A DNA stretch of 64,000 nt from an uncultured delta proteobacterium. GTDB lineage: Bacteria > Desulfobacterota > Syntrophia > Syntrophales > Smithellaceae. Location of the stretch: contig CAWEQT010000001.1 in the NCBI GenBank assembly GCA_963811325.1, positions 2,410,497 through 2,474,496 on the forward strand, read 5' to 3'. Both the position numbers and the translations under genes were made by a program. The notes under the pieces were generated by a model. The model was not told where the DNA came from. It saw only the letters and a list, made by a program, of their open reading frames with translations, and did not search any database. Of the stretch, positions 16,772 through 49,963 are shown piece after piece (position 1 is the stretch's first letter; every line of letters starts with the position of its first letter).

Positions 16772-16923
16772 ATGTATCCACCGACAAACAGCTATGCGCT
16801 ATTTCTTTTAGTAATGCTCAACATCAAGACTTTTCAAAATTGTTTATTCGTATGTGAAGGCAACGTTTCTGATGATGATTTAGCTTTTCAAAATCAATCA
16901 TAGAATTTTTTATTTTTAACTTC

Positions 16924-18551
16924 CTCTTCTAAGGAAGAAGTCAAGTATTTCTCTCGTAGAGATCTTTAAAGTTGAAAATGGTTGTGGTGGTACTTCGACC
17001 TTTTTTCCTTTTCACCTAACCTCTTTTATTCTACGGGCCCTTGATGCCCAACTTACCTTATACAGGACGAAAAGGGTGGTGGAAGTTGACCAAGCTAAAT
17101 CGCGCAAGCCTTTTAGCCTACGAAGTTACACGGACCTTCCTTCCGCCACAACCATACTTTACTATTTTATGTGTTTATGCTCATGCCGCAACAGGTACTA
17201 AATCTTCAAATTCCCGTTTGTCCCGTAGCAAGGCAAAGATCACTTTGATCAGCTTAATAGCCACCGCACAGAGCATCTCTTTACGTCTAGGCTGCTGACC
17301 AACTCTGTTTTTTGTTTCCAATTTACGAAGATAGTATTCCTGAAAATAGTTACTCAGTACCACCACCCTCATACTCATAAAGAAAAGATATTTCCGTAAG
17401 AGCCATCGCCCCTTCTTGGATATGAACTTCCGGCCAATACGTGAACCTGAATCACTCTCTTGGGGATCATATCCGGCGTACTTTACAATCTGACGGGCAT
17501 TATGAAAATGGGTAGGATCGCCCAGTTCTCCCAAAAACACAGCGGCAGAAAGGGGGCCTATGCCCGGTATGCTCATCAGATAGGATGCTGCGGTTGTCTC
17601 CTTCAGCAGGAGCTTCAACTGTTTATCTATATCCTTGAGCGACAGGACTGTCCGCTTTACTTCTTCCAGACACATTTGAACCCGGTACCGGTCGGCATTG
17701 CCAATCTGTTTTACGCCAATACTTTTTTGAGCCGCTTCAATAAGTTTTTCTACCTTACTGGCAGAACCAGCTTTTTTTCTTGACCTTCGTGCAATCAAGT
17801 CTTGGAGAGTTGACACTTTCATCAACACAACATCCTGAGGGAAAGGACACAGATCAAGAACTGCCCATAGACTACGTGACCCCATTGACCAAAATATCTC
17901 ATGCAGTTCGGGGAAATAGTCGTCCAGGGCGGCATGCAAGGAGTTTTTTGCACTCACACTGTATCGCAGAAGTCGCTCCCGTGCTTTAGAGAGCGTCCGC
18001 AACTGCCTCAGCACTCCATCCTCGATGACCGTGTCAATACATTTACCTTCTCTGGTTATGTTCGCTATGGTTAACGCATCTCTCTGATCACTCTTGGTTG
18101 ATGAACTCTCATCCAGCTCCCGGTGATGTTTCAATGCCGTCGTCCGTACAAAACGAACCTCATAGCCTTGCTCTTTGGCAAAATAGGCCAGCTTTCTCCA
18201 ATAATGTCCTGTCGGTTCCATCCCGATGAGAACATCCCTAAGATGATGCTTCGTTTTTAACCCTTCAATCATATCCACAAACTGCCCAAATCCTTCCCGA
18301 CTGGTATAGAGCTTCGCACAGCTTCCTAAAACCTTGCCTTCCTTGTTCATAAATCCCACTGCATTGAATGCATTGCCTATGTCAACTCCAACGATGAGGG
18401 TTGTTTTCTTAATCCTTTGACGACGTAATACTTGCTTGTTATAATCACTCTTGGACATGGTCTTTTCTCCTTTCTGCTTTGGTTGTTTTGGCTATTCAAC
18501 TTTGTCAGATCGAAAATACCATGTCCGCTACTATCTTCCTTATAGTAAGCT
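16924..18551 (-). mobile_element. IS110-family element A (IS1111-like), inserted in the left box of a module-junction site
   Basis: CT core at both ends (16924-25 and 18550-51); subterminal IRs TAAGGAAGA 16930-38 and TCTTCCTTA 18534-42; ~250-bp non-coding region downstream of the transposase. Removing it restores CTTCCTGTAA. Confidence 0.85.
17181..18458 (-). CDS. IS110-family DEDD transposase
   Basis: VGVDIG, MEPTGHYW, KSDQRDA, SIPGIG, SDSG. Confidence 0.93.
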   Translation of the reverse strand: MSKSDYNKQVLRRQRIKKTTLIVGVDIGNAFNAVGFMNKEGKVLGSCAKLYTSREGFGQFVDMIEGLKTKHHLRDVLIGMEPTGHYWRKLAYFAKEQGYEVRFVRTTALKHHRELDESSSTKSDQRDALTIANITREGKCIDTVIEDGVLRQLRTLSKARERLLRYSVSAKNSLHAALDDYFPELHEIFWSMGSRSLWAVLDLCPFPQDVVLMKVSTLQDLIARRSRKKAGSASKVEKLIEAAQKSIGVKQIGNADRYRVQMCLEEVKRTVLSLKDIDKQLKLLLKETTAASYLMSIPGIGPLSAAVFLGELGDPTHFHNARQIVKYAGYDPQESDSGSRIGRKFISKKGRWLLRKYLFFMSMRVVVLSNYFQEYYLRKLETKNRVGQQPRRKEMLCAVAIKLIKVIFALLRDKREFEDLVPVAA

Positions 18552-18602
18552 GTAATGTTGATTTTCTTACTTTCCCAATTCATGCAACATTTCATCCGTA
18601 AC
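18550..18602 (+). repeat. Module-junction site (its left box at 16920 is split by IS110-A)
   Basis: CTGTAA + 34 bp (TGTTG...CAACA) + TTTCATCCGTAAC. Confidence 0.8.
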
Positions 18603-18897
18603 AAACACTAGTCACGTCCAACAAACATAGACACCACACCCCACATTTTTTAATCAATATTTTCCTTGACATACAAACGTGGTTTCCCTATATTCCTTTT
18701 CCAAAGAAAGCAAGTTTTTATCAATCCGTATTACGGGAATGATTTTTCTATAAGTCCTCAAGGCCGTTTTTATTTTTAGGCTAGGTGGAAGGTAATGAGA
18801 ACAAAAAAACAAAATAGGATTAATCATTATTTTTAAGTTTTTGTAGCCGCTATTATTGAGATGCCGAAAATAAAAAAATGAAAGGACGTGAAATTTA

Positions 18898-19488
18898 ATG
18901 CTAAACAACGTTTACGAAATTAAAGAATCGTCAATTGCCGACCCGGGGCCGCTTGGTCTGGCTTGCTTCGCCCTAACCACCTTTTGCCTTAGCATGATAA
19001 ACGCAGAGTTAGTCGACAAAGCAGCAACCATCGTAGTGATTGCCCTTGCGCTCGTATACGGTGGCGTAACACAAATACTGGCTGGAATGTGGGAATATAA
19101 AAAGAACAATGTTTTTGGCGCTACCGCATTTGCATCATATGGTGCTTTTTGGATATCCCTCGGCATCTTTGATCTTTTAGCCACCCTGAAATTGGTTACA
19201 GTGCCTAGTCAAGGTGTTTGGTTGTTCTTACTAGCGTGGACCATTTTTACCTTTTATATGTGGATCGGCAGTTTTGGTACAAATAAGGCTCTAGTTGTTA
19301 CATTCACTTTGCTGCTTATAGCCTTTATTCTACTTACCATCGGAGCGGCAGGCAGCTCGTTAGCACATACAATGGGCGGTTATGTTGGTATTCTTACAGC
19401 TATTGCAGCCTGGTACACTTCAGCTGCTGGTATATGCAATACTGTGTTTGGGCGGGTTGTCTTGCCAGTAGGTCCCGTCAAAAAATAA
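18898..19488 (+). CDS. satP: Acetate uptake transporter, SatP/GPR1/FUN34/YaaH family
   Basis: ADPGPLGL and SYGAFW signatures; six hydrophobic segments. Confidence 0.88.
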   Translation: MLNNVYEIKESSIADPGPLGLACFALTTFCLSMINAELVDKAATIVVIALALVYGGVTQILAGMWEYKKNNVFGATAFASYGAFWISLGIFDLLATLKLVTVPSQGVWLFLLAWTIFTFYMWIGSFGTNKALVVTFTLLLIAFILLTIGAAGSSLAHTMGGYVGILTAIAAWYTSAAGICNTVFGRVVLPVGPVKK

Positions 19489-19723
19489 TTAATTAGTAAT
19501 CAAGAAAAAAGAGCGTTCCGCCTAACGTATTAAACATTCAGCCAAGAAAGTCATGACCGAGATAAAAATCGATTATGACTTTCTTCCTAATTCATTGATT
19601 CTCAAGTGACCTGCCACTGAAACTTTGTAGGTATTAGGTACAAATATTTTCTTAAAAATAAATTATTGTTTCCATAATGTATGTTTTAGTAAAAATAATT
19701 TTCTTAAAAAAACCAATTTACGC

Positions 19724-19785
19724 ATTACTTCCTGTAGTCAAGCATCAGCCATTTTTGACTTGCATACTCTCTTTCAATCGGTAAT
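19724..19785 (+). repeat. Module-junction site
   Basis: ATTACTTCCTGTAG + 34 bp + TTTCAATCGGTAAT, between convergent gene ends. Confidence 0.85.
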
Positions 19786-20302
19786 GCGCAAATATTACTG
19801 AAGACTTTTATCTAATTGCTGAATACTCCACAAAGCTTTGTCCACGGACAACGAGTTTGACAAAAGTCCAGTGGCGCCTTTTCCCTTATTAGTGCAAGCA
19901 ACACCCTTACCGTTATCTCTTGCCCGTAAGAAATACCAAGCCCTTTTAGTATTTTCGAGTCCCATTTCCGGACAGCGTCTTCATTGCCGATGGGATTCTC
20001 GCAACAGTCATTTTTGCAATCAGGACAGGATTTACAGAGTTGGTCTGGTCCCTCTGTAACGGTAATAATCAAATCGCTCTCTGATTGTGTAAGTTCTTTG
20101 ATTTTACTTAGGGCAAAGGAAAATTCTTCTCCGCGAATTAAGTTATCCAGGGGTAGAAACCTGTCACAAAAAAAGTGATGTGGTCGTAATCTTAATGTTT
20201 CCGGATTTTCACTAGAAGTCATACGCAATCCTAACTTTGAAATGTTTCCAATAATTCATCGCTATTCATCACAGATTGCCTTCTAAGGAAAACTTCTTCT
20301 TC
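19765..20302. repeat. ~540-bp direct repeat, copy 1 (copy 2 at 44905-45442)
   Basis: Near-identical sequence encoding the same 138-aa ORF. Confidence 0.95.
19812..20228 (-). CDS. DUF1284-like Cys/His-rich putative metal-binding protein, copy 1
   Basis: LRLRPHHFFC...GPDQLCKSCP...CQTRCPWTKLC. Confidence 0.75.
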   Translation of the reverse strand: MRMTSSENPETLRLRPHHFFCDRFLPLDNLIRGEEFSFALSKIKELTQSESDLIITVTEGPDQLCKSCPDCKNDCCENPIGNEDAVRKWDSKILKGLGISYGQEITVRVLLALIREKAPLDFCQTRCPWTKLCGVFSN

Positions 20303-20599
20303 TAAGGAAGAGAGCGTCCAGAATTTTCACTGATATGATCTGGAAATAAAGCCATACACAGTTGAGATATGATTAGTACAATCAATCTGGGCAATCGCTA
20401 CGCTTAGGTGAATTCATCGTTGCATCTTTCAATTTGAAAGAAGCCTTTTGCCGTGAATAATAATGGTGCAACATTATGGAGAAAGTCAACGCTGCCGCTG
20501 GTTAAGCGATGTTAAATAATCGGTGATCGGATTTTTTTTCTTGCTTCCTGTAGTCCTCAATTTTCAAAATGTTAATTTTATGCTTCTATGTAAAAAAGC

Positions 20600-20850
20600 A
20601 AGTCTTTTTTTAAAAGAGACATGATCAATATTCTTTTATAAAATATCGGGTGCATAGCAATCTTTAAAATCAATCTTCTATCAGCAGACAGACCGTTAGA
20701 AAGTCGCTGCATTTCCTTGGTCAGGTTTTAAAGGGTGGGCACGCAGTCTAGGTTAATAGCAGACTAAATGGCAAGCTGCAGCATAAAATAAGCGTTGCCC
20801 ACGGATTTATGATTATCAATTTGCCCTAAACACCCCATGATTGTTAATAG
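20600..20850 (-). ncRNA. Putative bridge/seek RNA of IS110-B copy 1 (boundaries approximate)
   Basis: Stem GTGGGCACGC (20735-44)/GCGTTGCCCAC (20792-802) encloses TCTAGGTTA (20747-55) and AGCATAAAAT (20780-89), which match opposite strands of the reconstructed target ATTTTATGCTTCTAGGTTA. Confidence 0.65.
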
Positions 20851-21909
20851 CTAAACAACCGCCGGAATATATTCTTGCCGATTTTTAAGAACGAATCGTA
20901 TACGGTTTAAAAGCTTCCGGGCAACATGCACAATAGCTTTCGTCTTTTTCATTCTCACAGATAGTTTATTGAAAGCCATTATCAATGCAGGGTCTTTGCG
21001 CACGGCGATCCAGGAAGATTCAATCAGTAACGCCCTGAGGGTGGCATTGCGCCGGAATGTGATGCCGGCAGCATATTCTGTTTCGCCGCTTGACCTTATG
21101 TCCGGAACCAAACCCTCGTAACTGGCAAGCTTATCAAGGGAGGAGAACCGGGAGAGATCGGCAAGCTCGGTCAGCAAAATCATGGCCGTCAAAGTGCTGA
21201 TGCCCGGCACGGATTTCAAAAGAAGGACGTCCGCCATATATTCTTCAGTTCTCGATAAACTTAATATGGCCTTGTTGAGGTTGGCGATAATCTGTCGCAG
21301 GTGCTTCAACTCCTCAAGATGTGCCTTGAGGGCAAAATCACCACTGGCCCTTTCCATACGGATAGATTCGATCCAATTGATAAATCGCCTGGACCAACGG
21401 CCCTCTTCAGGAATCACGATGCCGTAGAAAAATAAGATCGACGTGATCTGGTTCTTGCACCGTGTTTGTTTCCTCACCATGCTCTGACGGGTGCGCACCA
21501 AGGTGCGATCTTCCACTTTCACTCTTGGGGGAACGTAGATACCATTGATTTCACCGTTGCGGAGACCGCGGGCCAGTTTCCGGCAGTCTACCCCGTCCCT
21601 TTTGCCGGCTCTTTCCTTGTCTTTTGTCGGAACATCGGCAGGATGGACGACCAGGCAATCGATTCCTTTTGCTCTTAATTTGTCGTGGAGCCAGAAACCG
21701 CTGAAACCGGCTTCATAAACAGTATGATACGTGGCTCCTGGAAATGTTCTTTCCAAATAATACGTCAGTTTCTCAATCTCCGGGGGCTGGGTGAAGGTCT
21801 TATGCTCAAACTGTTCGGTATGTATACTCACGCTCCAGCTCTTCTTGTGGACATCCATGCCCACGTAAATGTGTTGACCTCCAAAGTCAAGTCTGTTATT
21901 CTTTTCCAT
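20851..21909 (-). CDS. IS110-family DEDD transposase, copy 1
   Basis: YVGMDVHKK, YEAG, KRDGVDC, SVPGIS, RSSGE. Confidence 0.93.
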   Translation of the reverse strand: MEKNNRLDFGGQHIYVGMDVHKKSWSVSIHTEQFEHKTFTQPPEIEKLTYYLERTFPGATYHTVYEAGFSGFWLHDKLRAKGIDCLVVHPADVPTKDKERAGKRDGVDCRKLARGLRNGEINGIYVPPRVKVEDRTLVRTRQSMVRKQTRCKNQITSILFFYGIVIPEEGRWSRRFINWIESIRMERASGDFALKAHLEELKHLRQIIANLNKAILSLSRTEEYMADVLLLKSVPGISTLTAMILLTELADLSRFSSLDKLASYEGLVPDIRSSGETEYAAGITFRRNATLRALLIESSWIAVRKDPALIMAFNKLSVRMKKTKAIVHVARKLLNRIRFVLKNRQEYIPAVV

Positions 21910-22073
21910 GGCGAGCCTCCTTTGCGTATTTATGTTTTAGCGGACTAAATATACCATCACAAAGTTGAGACTTGCCCTTGTATTTTTTAACATAAGGTCT
22001 AGGTTATTAACAGTAATCGTTAAAAAATCCCTCTTCGTTAAAATTATCCTACTAGGATTGCCTCGGGGGGCAA

Positions 22074-22409
22074 ATGAGGGAACATAACTACCTTTTCTCG
22101 AAGGTCGATTGGCATTCTGTAGACCGACACCAGCGCGATCAACTCTGCAATGAGGTCGCTGTCCTCGACGGTGATCGTCCCCTCAACACATCAATCGATG
22201 ATCTTTGCAAATACTTTGAAAATAAGTATTGTGTTAATGTTCCTACCCTTTACAGGGATGACATTGTGGCTGACCAGCGCGAGACACAGATTGACGTAAG
22301 CCGTGATCAAATGCGATACATCAGTGACCGGAGCCAGGCATTTCACGTGCCCGAAACTATGGTGGACGTTACGGTTCCATTTGATTTCGATTCATTGTTA
22401 ATATCTTGA
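22074..22409 (+). pseudogene. Hypothetical protein, probably an N-terminal fragment
   Basis: Coding-like ORF that runs abruptly into AT-rich sequence after VTVPF. Confidence 0.45.
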
Positions 22410-22712
22410 GAAAAATATTGACACATTATCAATATTTGTGCTTTTATTACCCACACTTTTCTTAAAGTATTTCAGTTTCACGTTCATTTTGGTAAATGTT
22501 GTTGAAGGAATTAGGTATGATTCAATCTAAAACTCATCAATCAGCGTCTTTTAAGAATGCAGCAGTATCCATCGCCGCGAATAGTATTATTCCTTTATCC
22601 TCAGTAACTGATAAAATCTCCCTTACAAAACATTTAAACAATATTGAAAGAATTCATGATGCCGATATTTCGTGAATCATGTATTGGTGGTAGATTGTAG
22701 GAAGGGCGAATC

Positions 22713-23699
22713 GTGAAAACACTGGTAACCGGAGCAGGGGGATTTATTGGGTCGATCCTCGTCAGGGAGTTGATCGCGCGGGGAGATCGGGTTAGAGCGC
22801 TGGCGTTATCCGGCGAAGATGTCGATGTTCTGGAGAAGCAGGGAGCAGAGATCGTTCGCGGTGACTTAATCGCCCCTGAAAGCCTTCGAGGAATATGTAA
22901 CGGCATCGACATGGTTTACCACTTGGCGGGGCGCGTCACCGACTGGGGCACGAAAAGTCAGTTTTACAGCGCAATCTATGATGCGACTGAAAACTTAATT
23001 AAAGAAGCTACGGGAAGGGTATCGCGCTTCGTTTACGTAAGCTCAATCGCCGCCATGGGGGTGGGGCGACACCTTAAAGGTGTGAAAGAGACCGATCCCA
23101 CCCATAAGTCAGGCGTTCCCTATAATGATGCAAAAGCCGACGCAGAAGCGCTGGTGCGAACCTACTATAACGAGGGGAAAATCGCCTGTGTCATTATTAT
23201 ACGGCCCGCGAACGTGACCGGCCCCGGAAGCGTATGGGTAAAGGATATTGTCGAACGGATGATTAGCATGCCGGTTCCCCTCTTCGGCGGGGGTCGTTAC
23301 AGTTCCAGCTTTGTATATGTGGACAACCTTGTAGACGGCATTGTTCGCGCCGGCACCATGGACATCGGCAAAGGCAAAGCTTATCACTTCCGGGACGATT
23401 GGAGTGTGACATGGAAAGAGTATATCACTGATCTCGGTTCTTTTATCGGCAAGCACCCGTTCGGCAGTATTCCCTTTGGGGTTGCGTGGGTGCTGGGAAC
23501 AATTTTTGATTTTGTTTTTAATCCAATCCACATCCGTCCGCCATTGACGCGCCTGGCGGTCTCTGTGATGGGAAGGGTTAATGATGTGGACACCACCCTA
23601 GCGCGCACTGAGCTCGGCTGGCGCACAAAGGTCTCCTACCAGGAGGCCAAAGAAAAGATCGGCACTTGGATCAAGGATAATTATACCCGCAAGGCATGA
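22713..23699 (+). CDS. NAD-dependent epimerase/dehydratase (extended SDR)
   Basis: TGAGGFIG, YNDAK. Confidence 0.88.
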   Translation: MKTLVTGAGGFIGSILVRELIARGDRVRALALSGEDVDVLEKQGAEIVRGDLIAPESLRGICNGIDMVYHLAGRVTDWGTKSQFYSAIYDATENLIKEATGRVSRFVYVSSIAAMGVGRHLKGVKETDPTHKSGVPYNDAKADAEALVRTYYNEGKIACVIIIRPANVTGPGSVWVKDIVERMISMPVPLFGGGRYSSSFVYVDNLVDGIVRAGTMDIGKGKAYHFRDDWSVTWKEYITDLGSFIGKHPFGSIPFGVAWVLGTIFDFVFNPIHIRPPLTRLAVSVMGRVNDVDTTLARTELGWRTKVSYQEAKEKIGTWIKDNYTRKA

Positions 23700-23753
23700 C
23701 GGCGTGCGGAGATTATCCGCCGCGCAGGACAAACATATTTAAGGAGATTCTCT

Positions 23754-24113
23754 ATGAGGTTCACATCGCTTTTATTCATTTTGTCTCAAATCCTGAAATG
23801 GGCGTCAAAATTTAAACCGGCCTATCGGAGTTACATCGGCTCCATTCATCAGGTAAAAATCATGATCAAAACTGCTGACGGAAAGCGAGGCAGACTTTTC
23901 ATCTTCGACGAGGGGACGGTCAGCTCCAAGAGCGGTGCCAATCATCCGTATGACGCGGCCATTGTTTGGTCGGACGCAAGTACGGGCTTTAAGGTAATGG
24001 CTTCAAAAAGCGATGAAGAGCAGTTCAAGGCTGCTGCTGCCGGAAAGATGAAGCTCGACGGTATGGCATTTTTTGCGCAATGGTTCAACGACGGCGTGAA
24101 ACTGGTGATGTAG
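23754..24113 (+). CDS. Small hypothetical protein, SCP2-like lipid-binding fold suspected
   Basis: AAGGAG RBS; C-terminal AAAAGKMKLDG resembles SCP2 domains. Confidence 0.6.
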   Translation: MRFTSLLFILSQILKWASKFKPAYRSYIGSIHQVKIMIKTADGKRGRLFIFDEGTVSSKSGANHPYDAAIVWSDASTGFKVMASKSDEEQFKAAAAGKMKLDGMAFFAQWFNDGVKLVM

Positions 24114-24172
24114 AGCTTACAAAGTCTCTGCCCGCGTATATTGATTGTAAATTCATTCTGAGGAGGAATAAT

Positions 24173-27999: not shown

Positions 28000-28061
28000 G
28001 TTTCTTCCCGTACGGTTGTTTTTTGATTTTTGCCTGCTTATGCAACCTTTCAATCCGTAAT
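28000..28061 (+). repeat. Module-junction site
   Basis: CTTCCCGTAC + 34 bp (GGTTG...CAACC) + TTTCAATCCGTAAT. Confidence 0.85.
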
Positions 28062-29448: not shown

Positions 29449-29497
29449 CTGAAAACTCAGTTGTTGGCAGTTCAATTCTTTTCTTGCCCACCATGAA
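29449..29497 (+). repeat. Degenerate copy of the 3' half of tRNA-Phe (att-like scar)
   Basis: CTGAAAACTCAGTTGTTGGCAGTTCAATTCTTTTCTTGCCCACCATGAA matches 15198-15246 at 39/49 positions by manual alignment. Confidence 0.75.
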
Positions 29498-29647
29498 TTT
29501 CCCCACAAGAGATATTCTGCGGTCTATGCCCCCTAATGGGCGCAGTTGGCGCGACTCGGCTTAAGGTGTTGACCGGAGAAACTCGCCTCAAGCATGTCAA
29601 TACCTCAATATCCGCTATTTTCTCTGTTCGTGCATTTCGTCGTCAAC
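29489..29647 (+). repeat. Element-end repeat, copy 1 (also at ~43917-44076 and ~51137-51297)
   Basis: CACCATGAATTTCCCCACAAGAGATATT...TTTTCTCTGTTCG shared by three loci. Confidence 0.85.
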
Positions 29648-30049
29648 TTATGGGATCAGGATCTGACACTGTCGCGCCCATTCCAGAGGCAGATCAGTCC
29701 TTTTGGTGAGCTTTTCAACATTGAGATCAGCAGGCTGATGCCCCTCTATGATAGTTTCAATAATGTCAGGGGCGAGGAAAGCAAGATTAACCACTCGGGA
29801 AACATAGCTTCTATCCACATCTTCTCTTGATGCAATTTCAGCCATATTTTTCATTTTTCCGGTTGCCAGATCATTGAACCATTTATGAGCGCGAACAATA
29901 GTTTTCAGCAAGGTTTGGTCTACTCTGATAGGTCCAGTACCATTAATTACAAGTCGCATCTCTATTCCCCGCCGTTTCATTCTCATGGGTATGGATTGAA
30001 CATTACAAACAGCTTGCTTCGGGGGAATTTGATCGGCTGTACCATCCAA
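29648..30049 (-). pseudogene. C-terminal remnant of a large serine recombinase
   Basis: SYVSRVVNLAFLAPDIIETIIEGHQP...LPLEWARQ tail resembling that of large resolvase-family recombinases; catalytic N-terminus absent. Confidence 0.7.
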
Positions 30050-31045: not shown

Positions 31046-31107
31046 ATAACTTCCTGTAAGTGAGTATTTATGATTTTTTACATATATACTTTCTTTCAAT
31101 CCGTAAT
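31046..31107 (+). repeat. Module-junction site
   Basis: CTTCCTGTAA + GTGAGTATTTATG-ATTTTTTA-CATATATACTTTC + TTTCAATCCGTAAT. Confidence 0.88.
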
Positions 31108-35056: not shown

Positions 35057-35119
35057 ATGAAGCTGAAACGGGTCGCCCTATGTAACTCCTATCCCGATCT
35101 GGAAATCGGATTTTTATTT

Positions 35120-35182
35120 CTTTCTTCCTTGTAAGAAACAGATCGTCAACCGTGACTAAAATGCAAGATTTCAATCCGTAAT
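35120..35182 (+). repeat. Module-junction site
   Basis: CTTCCTTGTAA + 34 bp + TTTCAATCCGTAAT. Confidence 0.88.
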
Positions 35183-35283
35183 AAACACAATTAAATCCTG
35201 ATGACAATGGTGGGTCGTGTATGATTTAAACTAGCAATAACTAATTACTTCCTTGTCAGTAAAACCCTTGTTTTGAAAAAATC

Positions 35284-35335
35284 TTGACAAATGCTCTATG
35301 AGTAATGATAATTATCATTACTCATAGAGCATTTG
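35284..35335 (+). promoter_or_regulatory. Sigma70-type promoter overlapped by a 48-bp perfect palindrome (probable TetR operator)
   Basis: TTGACA (35284)-17 bp-GATAAT (35307); CAAATGCTCTATGAGTAATGATAATTATCATTACTCATAGAGCATTTG (35288-35335) is self-complementary. Confidence 0.75.
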
Positions 35336-35350
35336 AGTTTTGGGGGTGTT

Positions 35351-36202
35351 ATGAAAAAAAGAGATCTTCACGGGAGCAATGTGGTTATCACCGGGGCCGC
35401 ATCGGGCATAGGGAGAGGGATTGCGCTTGCCTTTGCAAAAGAGCAATGCACCATACTACTCGCTGATATCAATGAGGCAGGGCTGAAGCAGACAAGTGAA
35501 ATGGTTCGGAAGGCAGGAGGCAATCCGGAGGTCTTCCTCTGTGATGTGTCGAAACTGGATGACGTCATGAGGATGGCGGACTATTGCTTCAGTACTTGGG
35601 GCAAAGTGGATATTCTCGTCAACAATGCCGGTGTCGCTTCAATCGGATTCATGGGCGATATGCCGATAAAGAACTGGGAATGGATTGTTTCCATAAATTT
35701 CTGGGGTGTCGTATACGGTTGTCATGCCTTTGTGCCCAGGATGAAAAAGCAGGGAAGCGGTTATATCGTGAATGTGGCATCGGCTGCCGGAATTCTGTCC
35801 TCTGCGGAAATGTCCCCCTATAATGCAACGAAGGCTGCAACAATCTCAATTTCGGAAACGCTCAAAAGCGAACTTGCTCCGTATAATATCGGTGTGACGG
35901 TGCTCTGCCCGACATTCATCAAGACAAATCTTATGGAGTCGATGAGATTCACAGACGAGTTTCAGAAACAGTGTTCTGTGACCGGGGTGGAAAATGCGAG
36001 ATGGACGCCGGATATGGTAGCAGCTTTGGTTGTTCATGCCGTGCGCAAGAAAAAATTATATGTGGTACCGCAGATGGCAGCCAAGCTGATGTGGATATCC
36101 AAACGTATTTCCCCATCCTCTTTTTTTGGCTTATTTGCATATCTCATGCGCAAGGGATGGGCGAGGAAATTAATGTTCCATATGGCCCAGAAAGGATTTT
36201 AA
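35351..36202 (+). CDS. Short-chain dehydrogenase/reductase
   Basis: TGAASGIG, NNAG, YNATK. Confidence 0.9.
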   Translation: MKKRDLHGSNVVITGAASGIGRGIALAFAKEQCTILLADINEAGLKQTSEMVRKAGGNPEVFLCDVSKLDDVMRMADYCFSTWGKVDILVNNAGVASIGFMGDMPIKNWEWIVSINFWGVVYGCHAFVPRMKKQGSGYIVNVASAAGILSSAEMSPYNATKAATISISETLKSELAPYNIGVTVLCPTFIKTNLMESMRFTDEFQKQCSVTGVENARWTPDMVAALVVHAVRKKKLYVVPQMAAKLMWISKRISPSSFFGLFAYLMRKGWARKLMFHMAQKGF

Positions 36203-41527: not shown

Positions 41528-41539
41528 GGAGGACCTATT

Positions 41540-41924: not shown

Positions 41925-43508
41925 ATGGCACAGGAACCATCATATTGGGCTCTCGAACTGGAAAGACAGGCGGAATCGATAGGAGACAAAACTTTTGTTT
42001 ATCTTGTATACGACGATCGCTCCATAACATATAGGGAAATGGATCTGAACGCGAACCGTTTTGCTAACTATCTTCTTGAGATCGGTGCAAAACCTGGCGA
42101 TGGTCTTGCGACGCTTATGGGGAACTCGCCGCAATTTCTTGATGTGTTTTTTGGCATCCAGAAGATCGGGATGTACATTAACACCGTCAATACAGGGCTT
42201 CGTGGAGAAGGCCTTGCCTTCATCATCGACAACAGCGATGCGAAATTCCTCGTAGTAGATTATGACAAGATCGATCTGTATCGAAGCGTAGATAAGAAAA
42301 CGCCTCAGCTTAAGTACATCATCGTAAATACTTTTGAGGCACCGAAAGATTTTGTAGTTCCTGAGGGGATGCTGGACTTAAAAGATGACTATAAGAGTGA
42401 CGTGTCCACGGCGAAACCAAAGGTGAGTTTTAGCCCGAATTTTCCTCTTCTTATCATGTATACCTCCGGTACCACCGGTTTACCTAAAGGGGTTCTTTTT
42501 AGATACAATAAAAACCTAGTGGACAAGGTCAAATTACTATCCCAGCTTGCTATGAAGCCGGACTCCGTATATTATACACCACTTGCACTGTTCCATGGAA
42601 ATGCGCTGTTTGTCACTACGACACAGGTGCTTGTATCCGGCGCCAAACTTGCTTTGAGCAAAAAGTTCAGCGCGAGCCGGTTCTTGAATGAGATATATGA
42701 ATCTGGTGCAACAATTTTCAACACCATCGGAGCGATGATTCCCATACTGCTCAAGCAGCCTGTTCATCCCCATGAAAAGGATCACAAAGTGCAACTCGTA
42801 ATCTCCGCGGGATGCCTGGCGGACATGTGGGTGCCTTTTGAAACCAGGTTTGGCGTTACACTTTGGGAGGCTTATGGTGCCATCGACGGTTCCGGAACGA
42901 TCATGAACTTGGGAAATGCTCCCAAAGGCTCCATAGGATCATCCATGATTTCGGAGATCAGACTTGTGGATGAAAATGGCAATGATGTGTCCAACGGAGA
43001 GCCTGGTGAACTTCTATTTAAGGTAAACCCGGACAAGAAAAACACAGTGGAATACTATAAGAACGTCGAAGCGACGGAAACGAAAACCAAAGGTGAATGG
43101 GAGCACACCGGGGACTATTTGTACAAGGACGACAAGGGTTTCCTCTATTTCGTTGGCCGAAAGACGGACTCCATGAGAAGACGTGGCGAAAATGTGTCGG
43201 CTTATGAAGTGGAAAAAATTATTCTCAAAAATCCTAAGGTCCAGGAGTGTGCGGTATATGGTGTGCCCTCCGAACTAACGGAGGACGAGATTATGGCTTC
43301 GGTGACCATAGTGGATGGCGAGCAATTGTCACCTACTAAGCTTTGGGAATTCCTGCAAGACAAGCTGGCCAAATATGCAATCCCCCGATACATCAGGATT
43401 GTCGATGACTTCCCGAGAACAGAGACCTTCCGAATCAAGAAAAATGAGATCAAGGCACAGGGAGTCACTCCAGATACATTTGATGCGGAAAAGATAAAAG
43501 CTCTCTAA
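41925..43508 (+). CDS. ATP-dependent acyl-CoA ligase (CaiC-like)
   Basis: YTSGTTGLPKG, HTGD, RRRGENVS. Confidence 0.9.
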   Translation: MAQEPSYWALELERQAESIGDKTFVYLVYDDRSITYREMDLNANRFANYLLEIGAKPGDGLATLMGNSPQFLDVFFGIQKIGMYINTVNTGLRGEGLAFIIDNSDAKFLVVDYDKIDLYRSVDKKTPQLKYIIVNTFEAPKDFVVPEGMLDLKDDYKSDVSTAKPKVSFSPNFPLLIMYTSGTTGLPKGVLFRYNKNLVDKVKLLSQLAMKPDSVYYTPLALFHGNALFVTTTQVLVSGAKLALSKKFSASRFLNEIYESGATIFNTIGAMIPILLKQPVHPHEKDHKVQLVISAGCLADMWVPFETRFGVTLWEAYGAIDGSGTIMNLGNAPKGSIGSSMISEIRLVDENGNDVSNGEPGELLFKVNPDKKNTVEYYKNVEATETKTKGEWEHTGDYLYKDDKGFLYFVGRKTDSMRRRGENVSAYEVEKIILKNPKVQECAVYGVPSELTEDEIMASVTIVDGEQLSPTKLWEFLQDKLAKYAIPRYIRIVDDFPRTETFRIKKNEIKAQGVTPDTFDAEKIKAL

Positions 43509-43700
43509 GATTAACGTGAAACAGGAAATGCTACAAAACAGTTATTCTTATCAACATTCAAGAGGAAACATTGAGTATCTGTGCCATCCCAAGTCCATAG
43601 CCAGAAATATAAAGTGCCTGTGTGCTTCACATATCATATAAATGCAAATGGCCAGGTTGACTTTATATTGGAAGCGTCATGGCTCAGTTCACTTTGGAGG

Positions 43701-44110
43701 AGAGAGGCTCCCTGATCTCGTCTGATAATTCCCTGTTCCGTGATTTAAATTCCCTGCTGTGTTGAGTAGGGAATTTTCTCTTTAACCCACTGGAATGATG
43801 CATCATATTGTCGTCACTTTTTCCATTTTGGCACCAGAAACGATAACATTCCCTGTAAATTCCCTGATAAACAGGGAATTTGGTATAGAGACTGGTTCGC
43901 AGTAGACTGCCAGCACCACCATGAATTTCCCCACAAGAGATATTCTGCGGTCTATGCCCCCTAATGGGCGCAGTTGGCGCGACTCGGCTTAAGGTGTTTA
44001 CCGGAGAAACTCGCCTCAAGCATGTCAAAACCTCAATATCCGCTATTTTCTCTGTTCGGTATTTTCGTCGGTCAACATATTTTATTAGAAATTGAGGCTG
44101 CTTTGCCAAT
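43701..44110 (+). repeat. Element end-to-end junction repeat (attP-like), with multiple TTCCCTG motifs
   Basis: Homologous to 50901-51340; several TTCCCTG/CAGGGAA motifs, then GGTTCG...CACCACCA joined to the repeat seen at 29489. Confidence 0.8.
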
Positions 44111-44126
44111 CAAGTGGTGATTATTT

Positions 44127-44188
44127 CTTCCTTCCTGTACGAGAGCCTCAGGCAATTTTGACTTGTCTGATTCCTTTCAATTAGTAAT
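44127..44188 (+). repeat. Module-junction site
   Basis: CTTCCTGTAC + 34 bp + TTTCAATTAGTAAT. Confidence 0.85.
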
Positions 44189-44233
44189 CAATATTTAATT
44201 GACATACCAGATTATCCTTCATATATTCCCCTC

Positions 44234-44698
44234 GTGAAAAAACAATGCCTCATTATTCTCTTTGCCTTTTCTATTCTGCTCGTGTCTTGCCTAAGTTGGG
44301 TCATGGAAAAGCCTTCCTTTGTCCTTCGCGAGATAACCATCAGACCCCGCTCCTTTACAGAGATGAATCTTCTCCTAGGTGTTGATATAAAAAATCCGAA
44401 TCGTTTTGACCTTACGCTAAAGTCTGTTGAATATATAATTTACCTTAACAATAAAAAAATCGGAAAAGGGTGTTTGGAAAAGGAACTCCTGATTCCCTCA
44501 TCATCAATAATACGGGTACAGATGCCCGTCCCTACAAAGTTCAAAGACTGGGGCAGAAACCTGAAGAGCATTATTACCGGTGATGAATTGCCCTATAAGA
44601 TAGAGGGAAAGATCGACATCAAAACGGTCTTCGGACTCCTCAATTTCCCTTTTTCAAAAGAAGGGCATATTAATCTAAAGAATTTAATCACCCTATAA
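44234..44698 (+). CDS. LEA type 2 (WHy-domain) lipoprotein
   Basis: Lipobox-like LVSC, IKNPNRFDL motif, LPYKIEG. Confidence 0.8.
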   Translation: MKKQCLIILFAFSILLVSCLSWVMEKPSFVLREITIRPRSFTEMNLLLGVDIKNPNRFDLTLKSVEYIIYLNNKKIGKGCLEKELLIPSSSIIRVQMPVPTKFKDWGRNLKSIITGDELPYKIEGKIDIKTVFGLLNFPFSKEGHINLKNLITL

Positions 44699-44904
44699 TC
44701 CGCACTTTTACAACATCGCTATGTTAATAATAAGTTGGTGAACTCAACAAGGACTTCTTCCTGTACTGTTGGAAATACGTTTCAAATACTCTATCCAAGA
44801 TTTAGTTAAAATTCTGCCATTTTTTATTTCTCATTTCAGGGAATCCTCTTGTGCTGGAGGACGGTAATGCAAGGAACGGTGTGGCATAACATGGGCATAG
44901 TCAT

Positions 44905-45442
44905 TACTCTCTTTCAATCGGTAATGCACAAATATTACTGAAGACTTTTATCTAATTGCTGAATACTCCACAAAGCTTTGTCCACGGACAACGAGTTTGA
45001 CAAAAGTCCAGTGGCGCCTTTTCCCTTATTAGTGCAAGCAACACCCTTACCGTTATCTCTTGCCCGTAAGAAATACCAAGCCCTTTTAGTATTTTCGAGT
45101 CCCATTTCCGGACAGCGTCTTCATTGCCGATGGGATTCTCGCAACAGTCATTTTTGCAATCAGGACAGGATTTACAGAGTTGGTCTGGTCCCTCTGTAAC
45201 GGTAATAATCAAATCGCTCTCTGATTGTGTAAGTTCTTTGATTTTACTTAGGGCAAAGGAAAATTCTTCTCCGCGAATTAAGTTATCCAGGGGTAGAAAC
45301 CTGTCACAAAAAAAGTGATGTGGTCGTAATCTTAATGTTTCCGGATTTTCACTAGAAGTCATACGCAATCCTAACTTTGAAATGTTTCCAATAATTCATC
45401 GCTATTTATCACAGATTGCCTTCTAAGGAAAACTTCTTCTTC
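44905..45442. repeat. ~540-bp direct repeat, copy 2
   Basis: Matches 19765-20302. Confidence 0.95.
44952..45368 (-). CDS. DUF1284-like protein, copy 2
   Basis: Translation identical to 19812-20228. Confidence 0.75.
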   Translation of the reverse strand: MRMTSSENPETLRLRPHHFFCDRFLPLDNLIRGEEFSFALSKIKELTQSESDLIITVTEGPDQLCKSCPDCKNDCCENPIGNEDAVRKWDSKILKGLGISYGQEITVRVLLALIREKAPLDFCQTRCPWTKLCGVFSN

Positions 45443-45622
45443 CGGATAAAAAAATACCTGTAACTGCCAATTACCCTTCATTGCACATTCCAAAATATCA
45501 AGAACAAAAGCTTTATACAGCAAGGCTGCAAAATCACTATCATAATCTTTTGCCAGCCGTGATTTTACCTGCCCCGGCTGAGGGTATTTGATGAAGACTA
45601 TCAGGCATCTATCCAACATCAT
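45443..45622 (-). pseudogene. DUF2064/TIGR04282-like glycosyltransferase, N-terminal fragment
   Basis: LIVFIKYPQPGQVKSRLA N-terminus; family resemblance ends at the duplication boundary (FFYP|EEE). Confidence 0.7.
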
Positions 45623-46440
45623 TTACTCTTTTGATAAGAAAAAGGCATTGCCAACAAAGCCGATAATTTTAGAGACCGATCGTCATGATAGCCATTCAGA
45701 CCTATTTTCATTTTATCATGACCCTCTCGGGGTTGCGCTATATAAGTACCAAAAAGCCTGTCCCACCAGGAAAAACTAAAACCATAGTTGCTGTTTGTTT
45801 CCCGCGCAATCACGGAATGATGCACCCGATGCATATCCGGTGTTACCAAAACCATCCTGATGACGCGATCAATGTATAAGGGGATTTTGATATTACCGTG
45901 GTTGAACATTGATGCGCCATTGAGCAGAACTTCGAAAATCAGGACAGATAAAGGTGGTGCGCCGATTGCTGCCACAGCAGCAAACTTAATCAGCAGTGAT
46001 AAAATTATCTCCAGAGGATGAAAACGCAATGCCGTGGTCACGTCAATATCTTCGTCAGTGTGGTGCACCATATGCACACGCCAGAATATAGGGATAAAGT
46101 GGAATATCCTATGTTGAAGGTAAATAACGAAATCAAGCACCAATATGCCGATGAACAACGCCAGTGGTTGTATTGTATGGCAGTAATTCAATAATCCCCA
46201 GCCTCTTTGCGCACAAATAACAGCTAATCCAACAGGAAATATCGGAAAAATCAAACGCAATACAACGACATCAATTATCTGCATACCAAGATTGCTGATC
46301 CAACGTTTAAACTTGGATTTTAAGAGATTTCGTCGCGGCGCAACCTTTTCACTTTGCACCACAACCATAAATATTGCGGTAAAAAACCCCAGACGCACTA
46401 ATGTTTCGGGTGAAATAAACGTCGTAGATGCATTCATCAT
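45619..46440 (-). CDS. Sterol desaturase/fatty-acid hydroxylase family protein
   Basis: His boxes HRIFH, HMVHH, HRVHH; SNYG...WDRLFGT. Confidence 0.88.
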   Translation of the reverse strand: MMNASTTFISPETLVRLGFFTAIFMVVVQSEKVAPRRNLLKSKFKRWISNLGMQIIDVVVLRLIFPIFPVGLAVICAQRGWGLLNYCHTIQPLALFIGILVLDFVIYLQHRIFHFIPIFWRVHMVHHTDEDIDVTTALRFHPLEIILSLLIKFAAVAAIGAPPLSVLIFEVLLNGASMFNHGNIKIPLYIDRVIRMVLVTPDMHRVHHSVIARETNSNYGFSFSWWDRLFGTYIAQPREGHDKMKIGLNGYHDDRSLKLSALLAMPFSYQKSK

Positions 46441-46453
46441 TAAAGAATATCTT

Positions 46454-47563
46454 CTACCGTTTTTTCTTAGATGAAAATAATTTCAAATACTTTCCGTAAC
46501 CTTCCTTTTCGAGATCCTCTTTAGGGATAAAACGCATGGCAGCGGAATTCATGCAATAGCGTAAGCCAGTCGGTGGCGGTCCATCCGAAAAAACATGACC
46601 CAGATGAGAATTAGCGTGTTTGCTCCTCACCTCTGTACGTGGAATAACCAGAAGAAGATCCTTCGCCTTCACGATATTCTCCGGCTCCAGGGGCTTGGTG
46701 AAACTTGGCCAGCCAGTGCCGGAATCGAATTTATCTAAAGAACTGAAAAGCGGCTCACCGGAAACAATATCCACATAGATGCCCTCTCTCTTGTTATTCC
46801 AATACTCATTATGAAACGCCTCTTCAGTGCCGTTTTTTTGAGTTACTTCATATTGGATTTTGGAAAGCCTCTTCTTCAAAGTCGCATCGTCTGGTTTATT
46901 GAATTTTTCCTGACCGGAAGATTCCAGGCCTGTCTCATTTCCCCATAATTTCTTTACGGTTTTATCACGGCCAGACCCGTAACGGTAGTAATTATAACGC
47001 ACGGGATTTTTAGTATGGTAATTCTGATGATATTCCTCCGCAGGATAAAAGTTAGTGAACTTAATTAAATCCGTAGCAATAGGTTTCACAAGTTTGCCGG
47101 ATTTTTCCAGCGCCTGTTTTGATTTTTCGGCAATCTGCCTCTGCTCTTCATCCTGATAAAATATGGCACTTCGATATTGAGGACCGCGGTCGACAAACTG
47201 TCCACCTCCATCCGTAGGATCAATATGGTGCCAGAAGTAATTTAAAAGTTTTTCATAGCTGATCTTTTGGGGGTTATAATAAACCTGCACGGCTTCAATA
47301 TAACCCATTCCAGCATATGATTCATATGTAGGATTTTCCCCCTTCCCCCCGGCATAACCGGATACTACTTTTATGACACCGGGAACCTTTTCAAAATCTG
47401 ATTCCGCGCACCAGAAGCAACCGGCTGCCAGTGTGGCGATATTCTCAGATGCTATTGCATTTGTTTTCGCCATTTTTGATTTTCCCTCCCCCTGATCGGT
47501 GTTACCGTTTTGACAACCTAAAGCGAAGCTTAATATTACTATGTACATTAATATTTTTTTCAT
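46454..47563 (-). CDS. msrAB: Bifunctional peptide-methionine sulfoxide reductase MsrA/MsrB, lipoprotein
   Basis: [32 protein letters not shown]; N-terminal lipobox LGC. Confidence 0.93.
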
Positions 47564-47823
47564 TATGCGCCTCCCTCTTTTTTATAAAATATATGATATT
47601 ATTGAATTTACCATATGGGTTGCTCTATAGGTTAATAGTAGGATAAACCTACTCTTGTCAAGTCAAATAGAATATATAAAACTGATCGTATCAGAGAAAA
47701 AAACTTAACTGTGAGATAAATTTAATCACTTGACACCAAGAGTAAGCTCAAGTATTTTTTAAATAACATGTCGAATCTTGTTTTGTCTCAATTGTTTCAC
47801 CGAAATTTTGCGGGAAAGATTAT

Positions 47824-48240
47824 ATGCCTGTAAACTATTTTAAAAATGATAAGTCATTGCGGCCACTGTTATTTCTTATATTTTTGTTGACTGTCATTAT
47901 CCTGCTGAAATTTTCCGGAGAGGCGGATAAATTAATAGACGTGCGTGAATGGATCAAAGGGCTCGGTTTCTGGGGTCCACTGGTTTTTATTCTAATTTAT
48001 ATACTGGCTGTCATTCTGGCACTGCCCGGATCGGCGGTAACGATTGCCGTAGCCACTCTTTTCGGTTCAGTTTGGGGAGTAGTGCTGGTAAGTATCGCTT
48101 CCACAATCGGAGCAAGCATCTGTTTTCTGATATCCCGTTATTTTGCCCGGGACTTCATTTTACGCAAATTCGCGCAAAACGAAAAATTCCTCAAATTGAG
48201 ATGTGCGATATCTGTGGCTCTCACAACGCAGCCCAATTGA
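47824..48240 (+). pseudogene. TVP38/TMEM64 (VTT-domain) membrane protein, 3'-truncated
   Basis: ALPGSAVTI...FG...STIGASICFLISRYFAR; ends before the conserved RLxP motif. Confidence 0.7.
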
Positions 48241-48381
48241 CAGATCTTTGAACCCACATCTTTTTTGATTATTAATGCAGGCAACGTTTCTAATGATGAT
48301 TTTGTTTTTTAAAATCGATCATTAAATTATTTATTAATAATTTCCTGAAGTCTGCATTTTCTAAATTTATAATTTTATGCT

Positions 48382-49798
48382 TCTATGTAAAAAAGCAAGT
48401 CTTTTTTTAAAAGAGACATGATCAATATTCTTTTATAAAATATCGGGTGCATAGCAATCTTTAAAATCAATCTTCTATCAGCAGACAGACCGTTAGAAAG
48501 TCGCTGCATTTCCTTGGTCAGGTTTTAAAGGGTGGGCACGCAGTCTAGGTTAATAGCAGACTAAATGGCAAGCTGCAGCATAAAATAAGCGTTGCCCACG
48601 GATTTATGATTATCAATTTGCCCTAAACACCCCATGATTGTTAATAGCTAAACAACCGCCGGAATATATTCTTGCCGATTTTTAAGAACGAATCGTATAC
48701 GGTTTAAAAGCTTCCGGGCAACATGCACAATAGCTTTCGTCTTTTTCATTCTCACAGATAGTTTATTGAAAGCCATTATCAATGCAGGGTCTTTGCGCAC
48801 GGCGATCCAGGAAGATTCAATCAGTAACGCCCTGAGGGTGGCATTGCGCCGGAATGTGATGCCGGCAGCATATTCTGTTTCGCCGCTTGACCTTATGTCC
48901 GGAACCAAACCCTCGTAACTGGCAAGCTTATCAAGGGAGGAGAACCGGGAGAGATCGGCAAGCTCGGTCAGCAAAATCATGGCCGTCAAAGTGCTGATGC
49001 CCGGCACGGATTTCAAAAGAAGGACGTCCGCCATATATTCTTCAGTTCTCGATAAACTTAATATGGCCTTGTTGAGGTTGGCGATAATCTGTCGCAGGTG
49101 CTTCAACTCCTCAAGATGTGCCTTGAGGGCAAAATCACCACTGGCCCTTTCCATACGGATAGATTCGATCCAATTGATAAATCGCCTGGACCAACGGCCC
49201 TCTTCAGGAATCACGATGCCGTAGAAAAATAAGATCGACGTGATCTGGTTCTTGCACCGTGTTTGTTTCCTCACCATGCTCTGACGGGTGCGCACCAAGG
49301 TGCGATCTTCCACTTTCACTCTTGGGGGAACGTAGATACCATTGATTTCACCGTTGCGGAGACCGCGGGCCAGTTTCCGGCAGTCTACCCCGTCCCTTTT
49401 GCCGGCTCTTTCCTTGTCTTTTGTCGGAACATCGGCAGGATGGACGACCAGGCAATCGATTCCTTTTGCTCTTAATTTGTCGTGGAGCCAGAAACCGCTG
49501 AAACCGGCTTCATAAACAGTATGATACGTGGCTCCTGGAAATGTTCTTTCCAAATAATACGTCAGTTTCTCAATCTCCGGGGGCTGGGTGAAGGTCTTAT
49601 GCTCAAACTGTTCGGTATGTATACTCACGCTCCAGCTCTTCTTGTGGACATCCATGCCCACGTAAATGTGTTGACCTCCAAAGTCAAGTCTGTTATTCTT
49701 TTCCATGGCGAGCCTCCTTTGCGTATTTATGTTTTAGCGGACTAAATATACCATCACAAAGTTGAGACTTGCCCTTGTATTTTTTAACATAAGGTCTA
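48382..49798 (-). mobile_element. IS110-family element B, copy 2, inserted in a module-junction site
   Basis: Matches 20585-22001; left box TTTCCTGAAG at 48341, right-box variant at 49801. Confidence 0.88.
48648..49706 (-). CDS. IS110-family DEDD transposase, copy 2
   Basis: Translation identical to 20851-21909. Confidence 0.93.
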   Translation of the reverse strand: MEKNNRLDFGGQHIYVGMDVHKKSWSVSIHTEQFEHKTFTQPPEIEKLTYYLERTFPGATYHTVYEAGFSGFWLHDKLRAKGIDCLVVHPADVPTKDKERAGKRDGVDCRKLARGLRNGEINGIYVPPRVKVEDRTLVRTRQSMVRKQTRCKNQITSILFFYGIVIPEEGRWSRRFINWIESIRMERASGDFALKAHLEELKHLRQIIANLNKAILSLSRTEEYMADVLLLKSVPGISTLTAMILLTELADLSRFSSLDKLASYEGLVPDIRSSGETEYAAGITFRRNATLRALLIESSWIAVRKDPALIMAFNKLSVRMKKTKAIVHVARKLLNRIRFVLKNRQEYIPAVV

Positions 49799-49963
49799 GG
49801 TTATTAACAGTAATCGTTAAAAAACGGCTGAACCTTAGCTTAAAATGTGTTACACGTTTCCGGGCATATCAACTATTAAGAACACAAAAAGATAAAATCT
49901 ATTAAAAAGAAAAAGTCATATTAGAGGATACATAAAAAAGCGAAACAAAAAAGGAAATAAGTC

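Follow-up and report, generated by a model that had tools for sequence, protein, structure and literature searches.

Insertion points of IS110-family elements in a 58-bp dispersed repeat of a Smithellaceae genome point to RNA-guided targeting

Why do different insertion sequences (IS) within one genomic region interrupt the same bipartite motif, and what does this tell about the motif itself? The question is raised by a stretch of 64,000 nucleotides (the window) from an uncultured delta proteobacterium of the Smithellaceae (Syntrophales), in which two kinds of IS, here called IS-A and IS-B, split intergenic sites composed of a left and a right box. According to an earlier note on this DNA, two unrelated IS1111-like elements had inserted into "junction sites", and their insertions supported the view that these sites form an abundant, conserved and functional class. 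We found that the sites are copies of a real, abundant and non-palindromic intergenic repeat, dispersed through the genome and conserved across the order, and we consider it very probable that IS-A and IS-B, together with a further element, IS-C, were inserted under RNA guidance into particular points of this 58-bp repeat. Coordinates without prefix refer to the window, those with the prefix C1 to positions elsewhere in the same genome, which was searched over 3.16 Mb and is 98% complete.

The open reading frames (ORFs) at 17181-18458, 20851-21909 and 48648-49706, all on the minus strand, encode IS110-family transposases. The transposases of IS-A, of both IS-B copies and of IS-C contain the two domains that mark the family, PF01548 (DEDD_Tnp_IS110) and PF02371 (Transposase_20), and the three lineages score 207, 206 and 236 bits, respectively, against NF033542, "IS110 family RNA-guided transposase" (cut-off 140). 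The genome holds 15 such genes in total, which were grouped into six lineages. The mode of insertion is likewise that of the family, with a short shared core and neither a long target duplication nor terminal inverted repeats: the dinucleotide CT stands at both junctions of IS-A and of the three full IS-B copies (IS-B1, IS-B2 and IS-B3), and removal of the IS together with one CT restores the site. Within the family, members of the IS1111 group have by definition a short left end, a long right end that encodes a bridge RNA, and inverted repeats of 7-17 bp in subterminal position (Durrant et al. 2024, PMC11208160). The subterminal inverted repeats of IS-A (TAAGGAAGA / TCTTCCTTA) comprise 9 bp, those of IS-B (TATGTTAAAAAA / TTTTTTACATA) agree at 11 of 12 positions, and the left and right ends measure 91 and 255 nt in IS-A and 89 and 266 nt in IS-B, the long end being non-coding in both cases and following the transposase gene. 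A guide RNA as expected for this group is predicted from the right end of IS-B; in IS-A the prediction extends to the 5′ guide only. By these sequence characters, IS-A and IS-B are assigned to two distant IS1111-type lineages of the IS110 family, in line with the IS1111-like label that they had been given. They are unrelated in so far as the lineages are distinct, but their transposases belong to one family, with 31% identity over 84 amino acids (E 3e-7); IS-A and IS-C transposases share 28% identity over 404 amino acids.

IS-A lies inside a left box, as the earlier note had recognized, and splits it at CTTC-CT/GTAA. Deletion of 16926-18551 yields CTTCCTGTAA, 34 nt (18556-18589) and TTTCATCCGTAAC, a restored box-spacer-box arrangement that matches the repeat model at E 2.4e-12. 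The boundary on the left-end side was set by means of nine relatives and a diverged fragment of the element (C1:563393-563615), which has the same terminus, ...ATAGTAAG-CT, with a right box after a further 38 nt. Relatives of IS-A occupy 12 loci in seven other genomes, one a congener with four copies and six from another family of the order. Their left-end flanks end in TTCAG in eight of nine readable cases and in TACAG in the ninth, their right-end flanks start with AG-GAAG in seven of ten, and both correspond to the left box on the opposite strand. Most of these insertions fall into the motif: seven of the 12 match the repeat model at E <= 0.001, with the junction always at model position 12/13, three match it weakly (E 0.02-0.5, one of them with just 5 nt of left flank) and two have no match, one of these offering a short right flank only. 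At 20290-20312, the sequence AACTTCTTCTTCTAAGGAAGAG closely resembles the junction between left box and IS-A right end at 16918-16940 and may be the relic of another IS-A insertion.

The two IS-B copies of the window are 99.5% identical, begin 41 nt from the start of a left box (20544 and 48341) and stand directly before a right-box variant, the equal offset having been noticed before. Alignment of the flanks and comparison with the empty site C1:677192 place the insertion point at ...TTTTATG-CT / CT-AGGTTA.... When one CT is kept, the restored site is a canonical 58-bp site with a 34-nt spacer (29 + CT + AGG), to which the site at C1:677192 is almost identical; the previous figure of about 37 bp was a counting slip. 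A third full copy, IS-B3, is found at C1:821483-822946 and a 282-bp relic at C1:709902-710183. This relic and the IS-A relic at C1:563393-563615 each lie at the point of their own lineage in other copies of the repeat. The left repeat part ends at model position 49 in all three full IS-B copies, which share one orientation relative to the repeat. Thus, the full copies of IS-A and IS-B are found without exception (4/4) within the repeat, at lineage- and orientation-specific points, and as the repeat occupies 0.25% of the genome, this cannot be ascribed to chance (0.0025^4, ~4e-11). Site- and orientation-specific insertion into the bipartite motif, as originally proposed, is confirmed. Contigs of samples X3, X8, X9 and X15 were inspected for empty alleles and contained no joint skipping either IS; the loose contig ends at IS borders in these samples stem from paralogous copies at other places of the genome or from insertions carried by other strains.

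The repeat is about 58 bp long and consists of (TTT)CTTCCTGTAA, a semi-variable core of 34 nt with about four subfamilies, and TTTCAATCCGTAAT. With at most one mismatch, the 10-mer of the left box occurs 14 times in the window versus 5.2 expected, a number reached by none of 100 shuffles, and most matches on the plus strand are followed by a right box 34 nt further on. A regular expression for the bipartite site retrieved 47 copies from the genome and an iterated nhmmer model 120 copies, which add up to 7.8 kb; 119 of the 120 are intergenic according to a crude ORF map. Between co-directional genes, 68 copies are in sense and 8 in antisense orientation, and every one of the ten nhmmer matches in the window is on the plus strand. 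Many copies follow shortly downstream of a gene end, and the distances between copies range from ~0.6 to 11 kb, so that whole operons can lie in between. Homology between copies stops at the borders of the repeat (median start 2 nt before the left box, median end 8 nt after the right box). Among 201 sampled genomes of the order, scanned with a strict bipartite pattern and a reversed-pattern control, the pattern was present in 74, with up to 62 matches in a congener, and the control gave 0 matches in each genome.

Neither an RNA structure nor a cognate enzyme was found for the repeat. RNAalifold on 96 copies gave no consensus structure on either strand, and folding energies of these copies did not differ significantly from those of shuffled sequences (mean z -0.37 and -0.23). 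A transposase of the RAYT type (REP-associated tyrosine transposase, PF01797) was not found in the 98%-complete genome, nor was an integron integrase, the best match to TIGR02249 scoring 83 bits versus a cut-off of 265. The repeat therefore has neither the hairpin fold nor the RAYT of a REP (repetitive extragenic palindromic) element or REPtron; it resembles REP elements in being intergenic, multi-copy and IS-targeted, not in structure. Nor does it qualify as an integron attC site, with neither IntI nor fold and with spacings of up to 11 kb. Rfam searches with gathering and E-value thresholds returned a tRNA only and no family for the repeat or the guide RNA. Full-text literature searches retrieved no published description, and the accessible part of a comparative paper on Smithellaceae from 2026 mentions neither the repeat nor IS110 (PMC13685792). 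The repeat seems not to have been described before.

How would an IS find such a site? In the right end of IS-B, AUUUUAUGCU is a 10-nt antisense match to core and right flank, and 30 nt further on, UAACCUAG is an 8-nt sense match to left flank and core. Over 11 nt each, the guide strands agree with the target at 10 and 10 positions. In the minimum-free-energy fold, the two guides (5′ guide UUAUUUUAUGCU at 20780-20791, 3′ guide UAUUAACCUAG at 20748-20758) are the two strands of a single internal loop, which is enclosed by a closing stem (GUGGGCAACGC / GCGUGCCCAC) and an apical stem (GCAGC...GUCUGC) and is the predicted target-binding loop of a seek/bridge RNA. Relatives of IS-B were collected from 80 loci (55-97% amino acid identity, the closest in Smithella metagenome-assembled genomes, MAGs). 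Alignment of their right ends shows conserved stems and variable loop strands; the other flank was read from the left-end alignment. The 3′ guide agreed with the left flank of its own element at 5.04 of 7 positions and with the left flanks of other elements at 2.32 of 7 (26 non-redundant loci), and the 5′ guide with own and other right flanks at 8.29 and 5.5 of 10 positions (21 loci); none of 10,000 permutations reached the observed sum in either case, counts that overstate independence because the sequences are related. Stem partners can pair in 93% of cells versus 29-48% when they are slid against each other (30 sequences), figures that lean in favor of the structure, as it was derived from one member of a set of related sequences; both-side changes were seen in seven pairs. 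The guides also single out the occupied sites within the genome: these are the best matches to the guide-defined 21-mer, with two mismatches, whereas the best empty site has three, one of them in the core. Moreover, L008 and L069, two relatives with different loop strands (74-78% amino acid identity), occupy left boxes that belong to this repeat family (E 6e-13 and 3e-11 against the repeat model).

In IS-A, the variable 5′ guide tracks the right flank also in relatives, with 10/11 positions in L099, 8/11 in L093 and L095 and 8/9 in the congener, all counted by eye in the alignment. Comparison of these sequences leaves its putative target-binding loop half established, with only the 5′ guide convincing. 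IS-C, which did not figure in the earlier note, is of the IS110 type. Its left end measures ~252 nt and its right end 7 nt, opposite to the IS1111 layout. The genome contains four nearly identical copies of IS-C, each of them preceded by a right-box end (...GTAAT or ...GCGAT), with GTAAT^CAA(C/T)T as the restored site. The guide order is reversed in comparison with IS-B: GGUAAUC in sense comes first, then AAUUGA in antisense, around a GGGC...GCCC stem. Two further lineages are found at or near the repeat. IS-D (two copies with frames of 250 amino acids) abuts CT|GTAA of a repeat with its right end in both copies; its loop resembles that of IS-C, and its guides do not match the repeat flank of IS-D. 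Two of the four IS-F copies are close to a repeat but not inside it, with a left box starting 42-62 nt downstream of them; the other two are not so placed. The segment 16740-16850 is the reverse complement of sequence beside the right end of the IS-F copy F1 (C1, ~156800).

We envisage the following course of events. A candidate guide RNA in each IS would match the dispersed repeat and direct insertion to fixed points, and the DEDD recombinase would insert the circularized IS at the CT in a single orientation. IS-A would be programmed for the left box, CTTC-CT-GWAR, IS-B for ATG-CT-AGGTTA, immediately ahead of the right box in one of the repeat subfamilies (target ATTTTATG-CT-AGGTTA), and IS-C for the right-box end. 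The boundaries of the elements, their restored sites, guide-target complementarity and its covariation, and the abundance and spread of the repeat are observations of this analysis. The RNA would be produced, the transposase would bind it and strands would be exchanged chemically as published for the IS110 family.

A number of observations weigh against this scheme. The 3′ loop strand of IS-A, GGUCAACUUCCACC, does not vary and is a poor match to the element's own left flank, and in the 5′ guide a G stands opposite the second position of the core. The donor-binding loop of IS-B is half convincing and is assigned on one strand only: its 3′ strand AUAGAAG matches the right-end terminus and core, with covariation seen by eye, and its 5′ strand is a poor match. 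The closest IS-B relative, L001, which has 96% amino acid identity and the same 5′ guide, does not reside in a recognizable repeat. Among the reconstructed sites of IS-B relatives, 52 of 54 have no match at E <= 0.001 to the repeat model. These 52 relatives mostly have other guides and, where inspected, other targets; several lie in other repeats, e.g. GTCATTCC...GGAATCC (by eye), and sites in Nitrospirota MAGs are weak look-alikes of the repeat (E 0.04-0.26). Contigs from an RNA library represent 90-95% relatives only and are unable to show transcript ends or levels, and Rfam has no family that matches the candidate guide RNA. Finally, IS-B1 and IS-B2 share 27 identical nucleotides past the core on the right-box side (22001-22027 and 49798-49824), possibly as a result of gene conversion or because they sit in sister copies of the repeat.

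Instead of plain repeats, the bipartite sites might be cassette junctions of another mobile system, exploited by IS in the same way as attC by the IS1111-attC group; the insertions would then be markers of a working recombination system. The evidence bearing on such a role is thin and mixed, and we regard it as improbable. Repeat copies are co-oriented in clusters, with 10/10 window matches on the plus strand, and many follow gene ends. A 538-bp segment with a DUF1284 gene is duplicated at 19765-20302 and 44905-45442 (99.6% identity), and of its breakpoints one falls 7 nt ahead of a right box and one at the left-box-like sequence AACTTCTTCTTC. Furthermore, the 5.2-kb stretch 53880-59100 is poorly syntenic within the genus, and IS1111 members are known to hit attC sites and Tn21 ends, as stated in PMC11208160 and PMC11187229. 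However, neither an integron integrase nor a RAYT was found by the searches described above, and the repeat has no significant fold and no R″/R′ motifs of attC when read against the consensus. Copies ~0.6-11 kb apart with whole operons in between do not suggest cassettes. The homologue of gene 55514-57214 in a congener (G207) is not bounded by the repeat, although it is the sole shared gene and synteny is poor. Co-orientation tracks gene direction (68 sense versus 8 antisense) and is explained equally well by selection at the transcript level. RNA-guided IS require nothing of their target beyond sequence conservation.

It is highly improbable that the two window copies of IS-B and their apparent site specificity go back to a segmental duplication or homologous recombination. 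The 27 identical nucleotides on the right-box side would fit such an origin, and the window contains other duplications. Yet the sequences following the left boxes are ~70% alike and differ at ~11 of 39 positions, a difference that had been noticed early on, and the flanks of IS-B1 and IS-B2 are unrelated outside the repeat on both sides; the third full copy and the relic reside in other repeat copies elsewhere, and guides and target agree. IS-B1 and IS-B2 were inserted independently, as previously assumed. That the boxes are ends or footprints of IS110-family elements instead of host repeats is scarcely credible, even though the IS-A terminus CTTCTAAGGAAGA is left-box-like and a relic-like junction exists at 20290-20312, since over 100 intact copies of 58 bp neither contain nor adjoin IS sequence, pairwise homology between copies stops at the repeat borders, the IS110 family excises without a scar (PMC11208160), and genome G035 has 62 pattern matches and no IS-A match.

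RNA-guided insertion into the repeat bears on the function that the earlier note had ascribed to the sites. The insertions confirm that the sites are abundant (~120 copies) and conserved (74 of 201 genomes), but the step to a functional class with a role in recombination is unsupported, because an RNA-guided IS needs only a conserved repeated sequence that matches its guides. As a tentative suggestion, which we rate as possible but rather doubtful, the repeat may be a transcription-oriented element with a function of its own, for example a landing pad for a two-site protein or a recombination junction, and at least three IS110-family lineages, with IS1111 and IS110 types both represented, may have been re-programmed independently to three fixed points within it. 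The suggestion refers to the fixed length and the conserved ends across the order and to the look-alikes at Nitrospirota MAG sites. With ~120 copies and a constant length of 58 bp across the order, the repeat is perhaps a more interesting object than the IS. The elements, in turn, show clearly how guides of IS1111-type elements have been re-programmed in nature, here in an uncultured syntroph lineage: close relatives combine a common scaffold with different loop strands and different targets, and several unrelated scaffolds converge on one repeat. They may be of use for cataloguing the diversity of bridge and seek RNAs and for annotating Smithellaceae genomes, whose assemblies are broken by these IS and repeats.

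IS621 of Escherichia coli is said to go back to Choi and colleagues (2003), and the IS1111-attC group (ISKpn4, ISPst6, ISPa25) reportedly to Post and Hall (2009). IS110-family elements are known on REP elements, attC sites and transposon ends (PMC11208160, PMC11187229 and PMC12288879). ISPa11 targets REP elements of Pseudomonas aeruginosa (Siddiquee et al. 2024, PMC11187229) and ISPpu9 those of P. putida (PMC12288879). Like these two, IS-A and IS-B combine a DEDD transposase and subterminal inverted repeats with a long non-coding end that follows the transposase gene and an RNA, predicted here, in which the complement of the top strand of the target precedes that of the bottom strand, and they insert into a multi-copy intergenic repeat in a position- and orientation-specific manner. 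In contrast to ISPa11 and ISPpu9, the host is Smithella-like (Syntrophales), the target is a non-palindromic bipartite sequence of 58 bp and not a REP hairpin, a RAYT was not found, and several lineages use three points of one repeat. In IS1111 seekRNAs the top-strand complement comes first, and the order is reversed in the IS110 type (Siddiquee et al. 2024, PMC11187229); the predicted guide order of IS-B corresponds to the former and that of IS-C to the latter. IS621 shares with the elements described here the CT core at both junctions, a multi-copy target (REP-type in IS621) and a bridge RNA, predicted for the present elements, that has one internal loop for the target and one for the donor, with covariation between loop strands and flanks (Durrant et al. 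2024, PMC11208160). It differs in that its RNA is located in the left end and its guide order is reversed, whereas the predicted RNAs of IS-A and IS-B are located in the right end; an IS621-type layout is seen in IS-C only. Members of the IS1111-attC group home to a site at which another mobile system recombines, the parallel invoked in the earlier note, whereas here neither an integron integrase nor attC features were found and the target is not a demonstrated recombination site. Both the mechanism and the habit of targeting repeats have been published before; new instances are the present IS with their guides, and several lineages that converge on three points of a single non-palindromic repeat.

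Table 1. Positions of the insertion sequences, predicted RNA features and repeat copies in the window.
Feature	Coordinates	Strand	Remarks
Left part of repeat split by IS-A	16910-16925	+	...TTTTTAACTTC-CT
IS-A, IS1111-type	16926-18549	-	1624 bp; CT at 16924-25 and 18550-51
IS-A right non-coding end, candidate seek/bridge RNA	16926-17180	-	guide match
IS-A variable 5′ guide (putative)	17120-17132	-	CGUGUAACUUCGU; matches own right-flank target 9/11
IS-A transposase gene	17181-18458	-	425 aa (amino acids); Pfam PF01548 + PF02371, NF033542
Right part of repeat split by IS-A	18550-18607	+	CT-GTAA + 34 nt + TTTCATCCGTAAC; nhmmer positions 13-71, E 3.9e-6
Intact 58-bp repeat copy	19728-19785	+	
Left part of repeat split by IS-B1	20544-20584	+	left box CTTCCTGTAG + 29 nt + CT; nhmmer positions 4-49, E 0.0013
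IS-B copy 1	20585-21998	-	1414 bp; CT at 20583-84 and 21999-22000
IS-B target-binding loop of predicted seek/bridge RNA	20735-20803	-	fold and covariation
IS-B1 transposase gene	20851-21909	-	352 aa; Pfam, NF033542
Right part of repeat split by IS-B1	22001-22017	+	AGG + TTATTAACAGTAAT; right-box variant at 22004-22017
Intact repeat copy	28004-28061	+	
Intact repeat copy	31050-31107	+	
Intact repeat copy	35116-35187	+	
Intact repeat copy	44131-44188	+	
Left part of repeat split by IS-B2	48341-48381	+	TTTCCTGAAG...ATG-CT; nhmmer positions 4-49, E 0.047
IS-B copy 2	48382-49795	-	CT at 48380-81 and 49796-97; transposase gene 48648-49706
Right part of repeat split by IS-B2	49798-49814	+	right-box variant TTATTAACAGTAAT at 49801-49814
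Intact repeat copy	51358-51415	+	
IS-C, IS110-type	52179-53637	+	transposase gene 52431-53630; inserted after ...GCGAT
Intact repeat copy	53707-53773	+	
Intact repeat copy	54434-54491	+	
Intact repeat copy	58964-59022	+	

Further repeats were noticed in and around the window. The sequences 16855-16925 and 48276-48346 are 83% identical; hence, some copies of the 58-bp repeat share ~60 nt upstream of the left box. A repeat of ~420 bp occurs at 43700-44117 and 50900-51339 (80% identity), with a 165-bp piece at 29488-29651 (95%); it is found twice just upstream of a 58-bp element and overlaps an ORF of 141 amino acids without Pfam family. Another dispersed repeat of ~60 nt, at ~54790-54850, occurs more than 20 times in the genome, with further copies in congeners. 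At the Nitrospirota MAG loci L047, L049 and L053, which harbor IS-B relatives, the reconstructed sites consist of CTTCCTGWAG, ~34 nt and a right-box-like sequence, and a similar bipartite repeat may exist outside the order.

A tRNA gene (15167-15239) marks the start of the plus-strand block that is rich in repeats and IS. Inside the ORF 49964-50317, which has no Pfam family, a unit of 135 nt is duplicated in tandem (50033-50302, 95% identity). A perfect palindrome of 48 nt (35288-35335) ends at the first bases of the ORF 35333-36202, which encodes a short-chain dehydrogenase.

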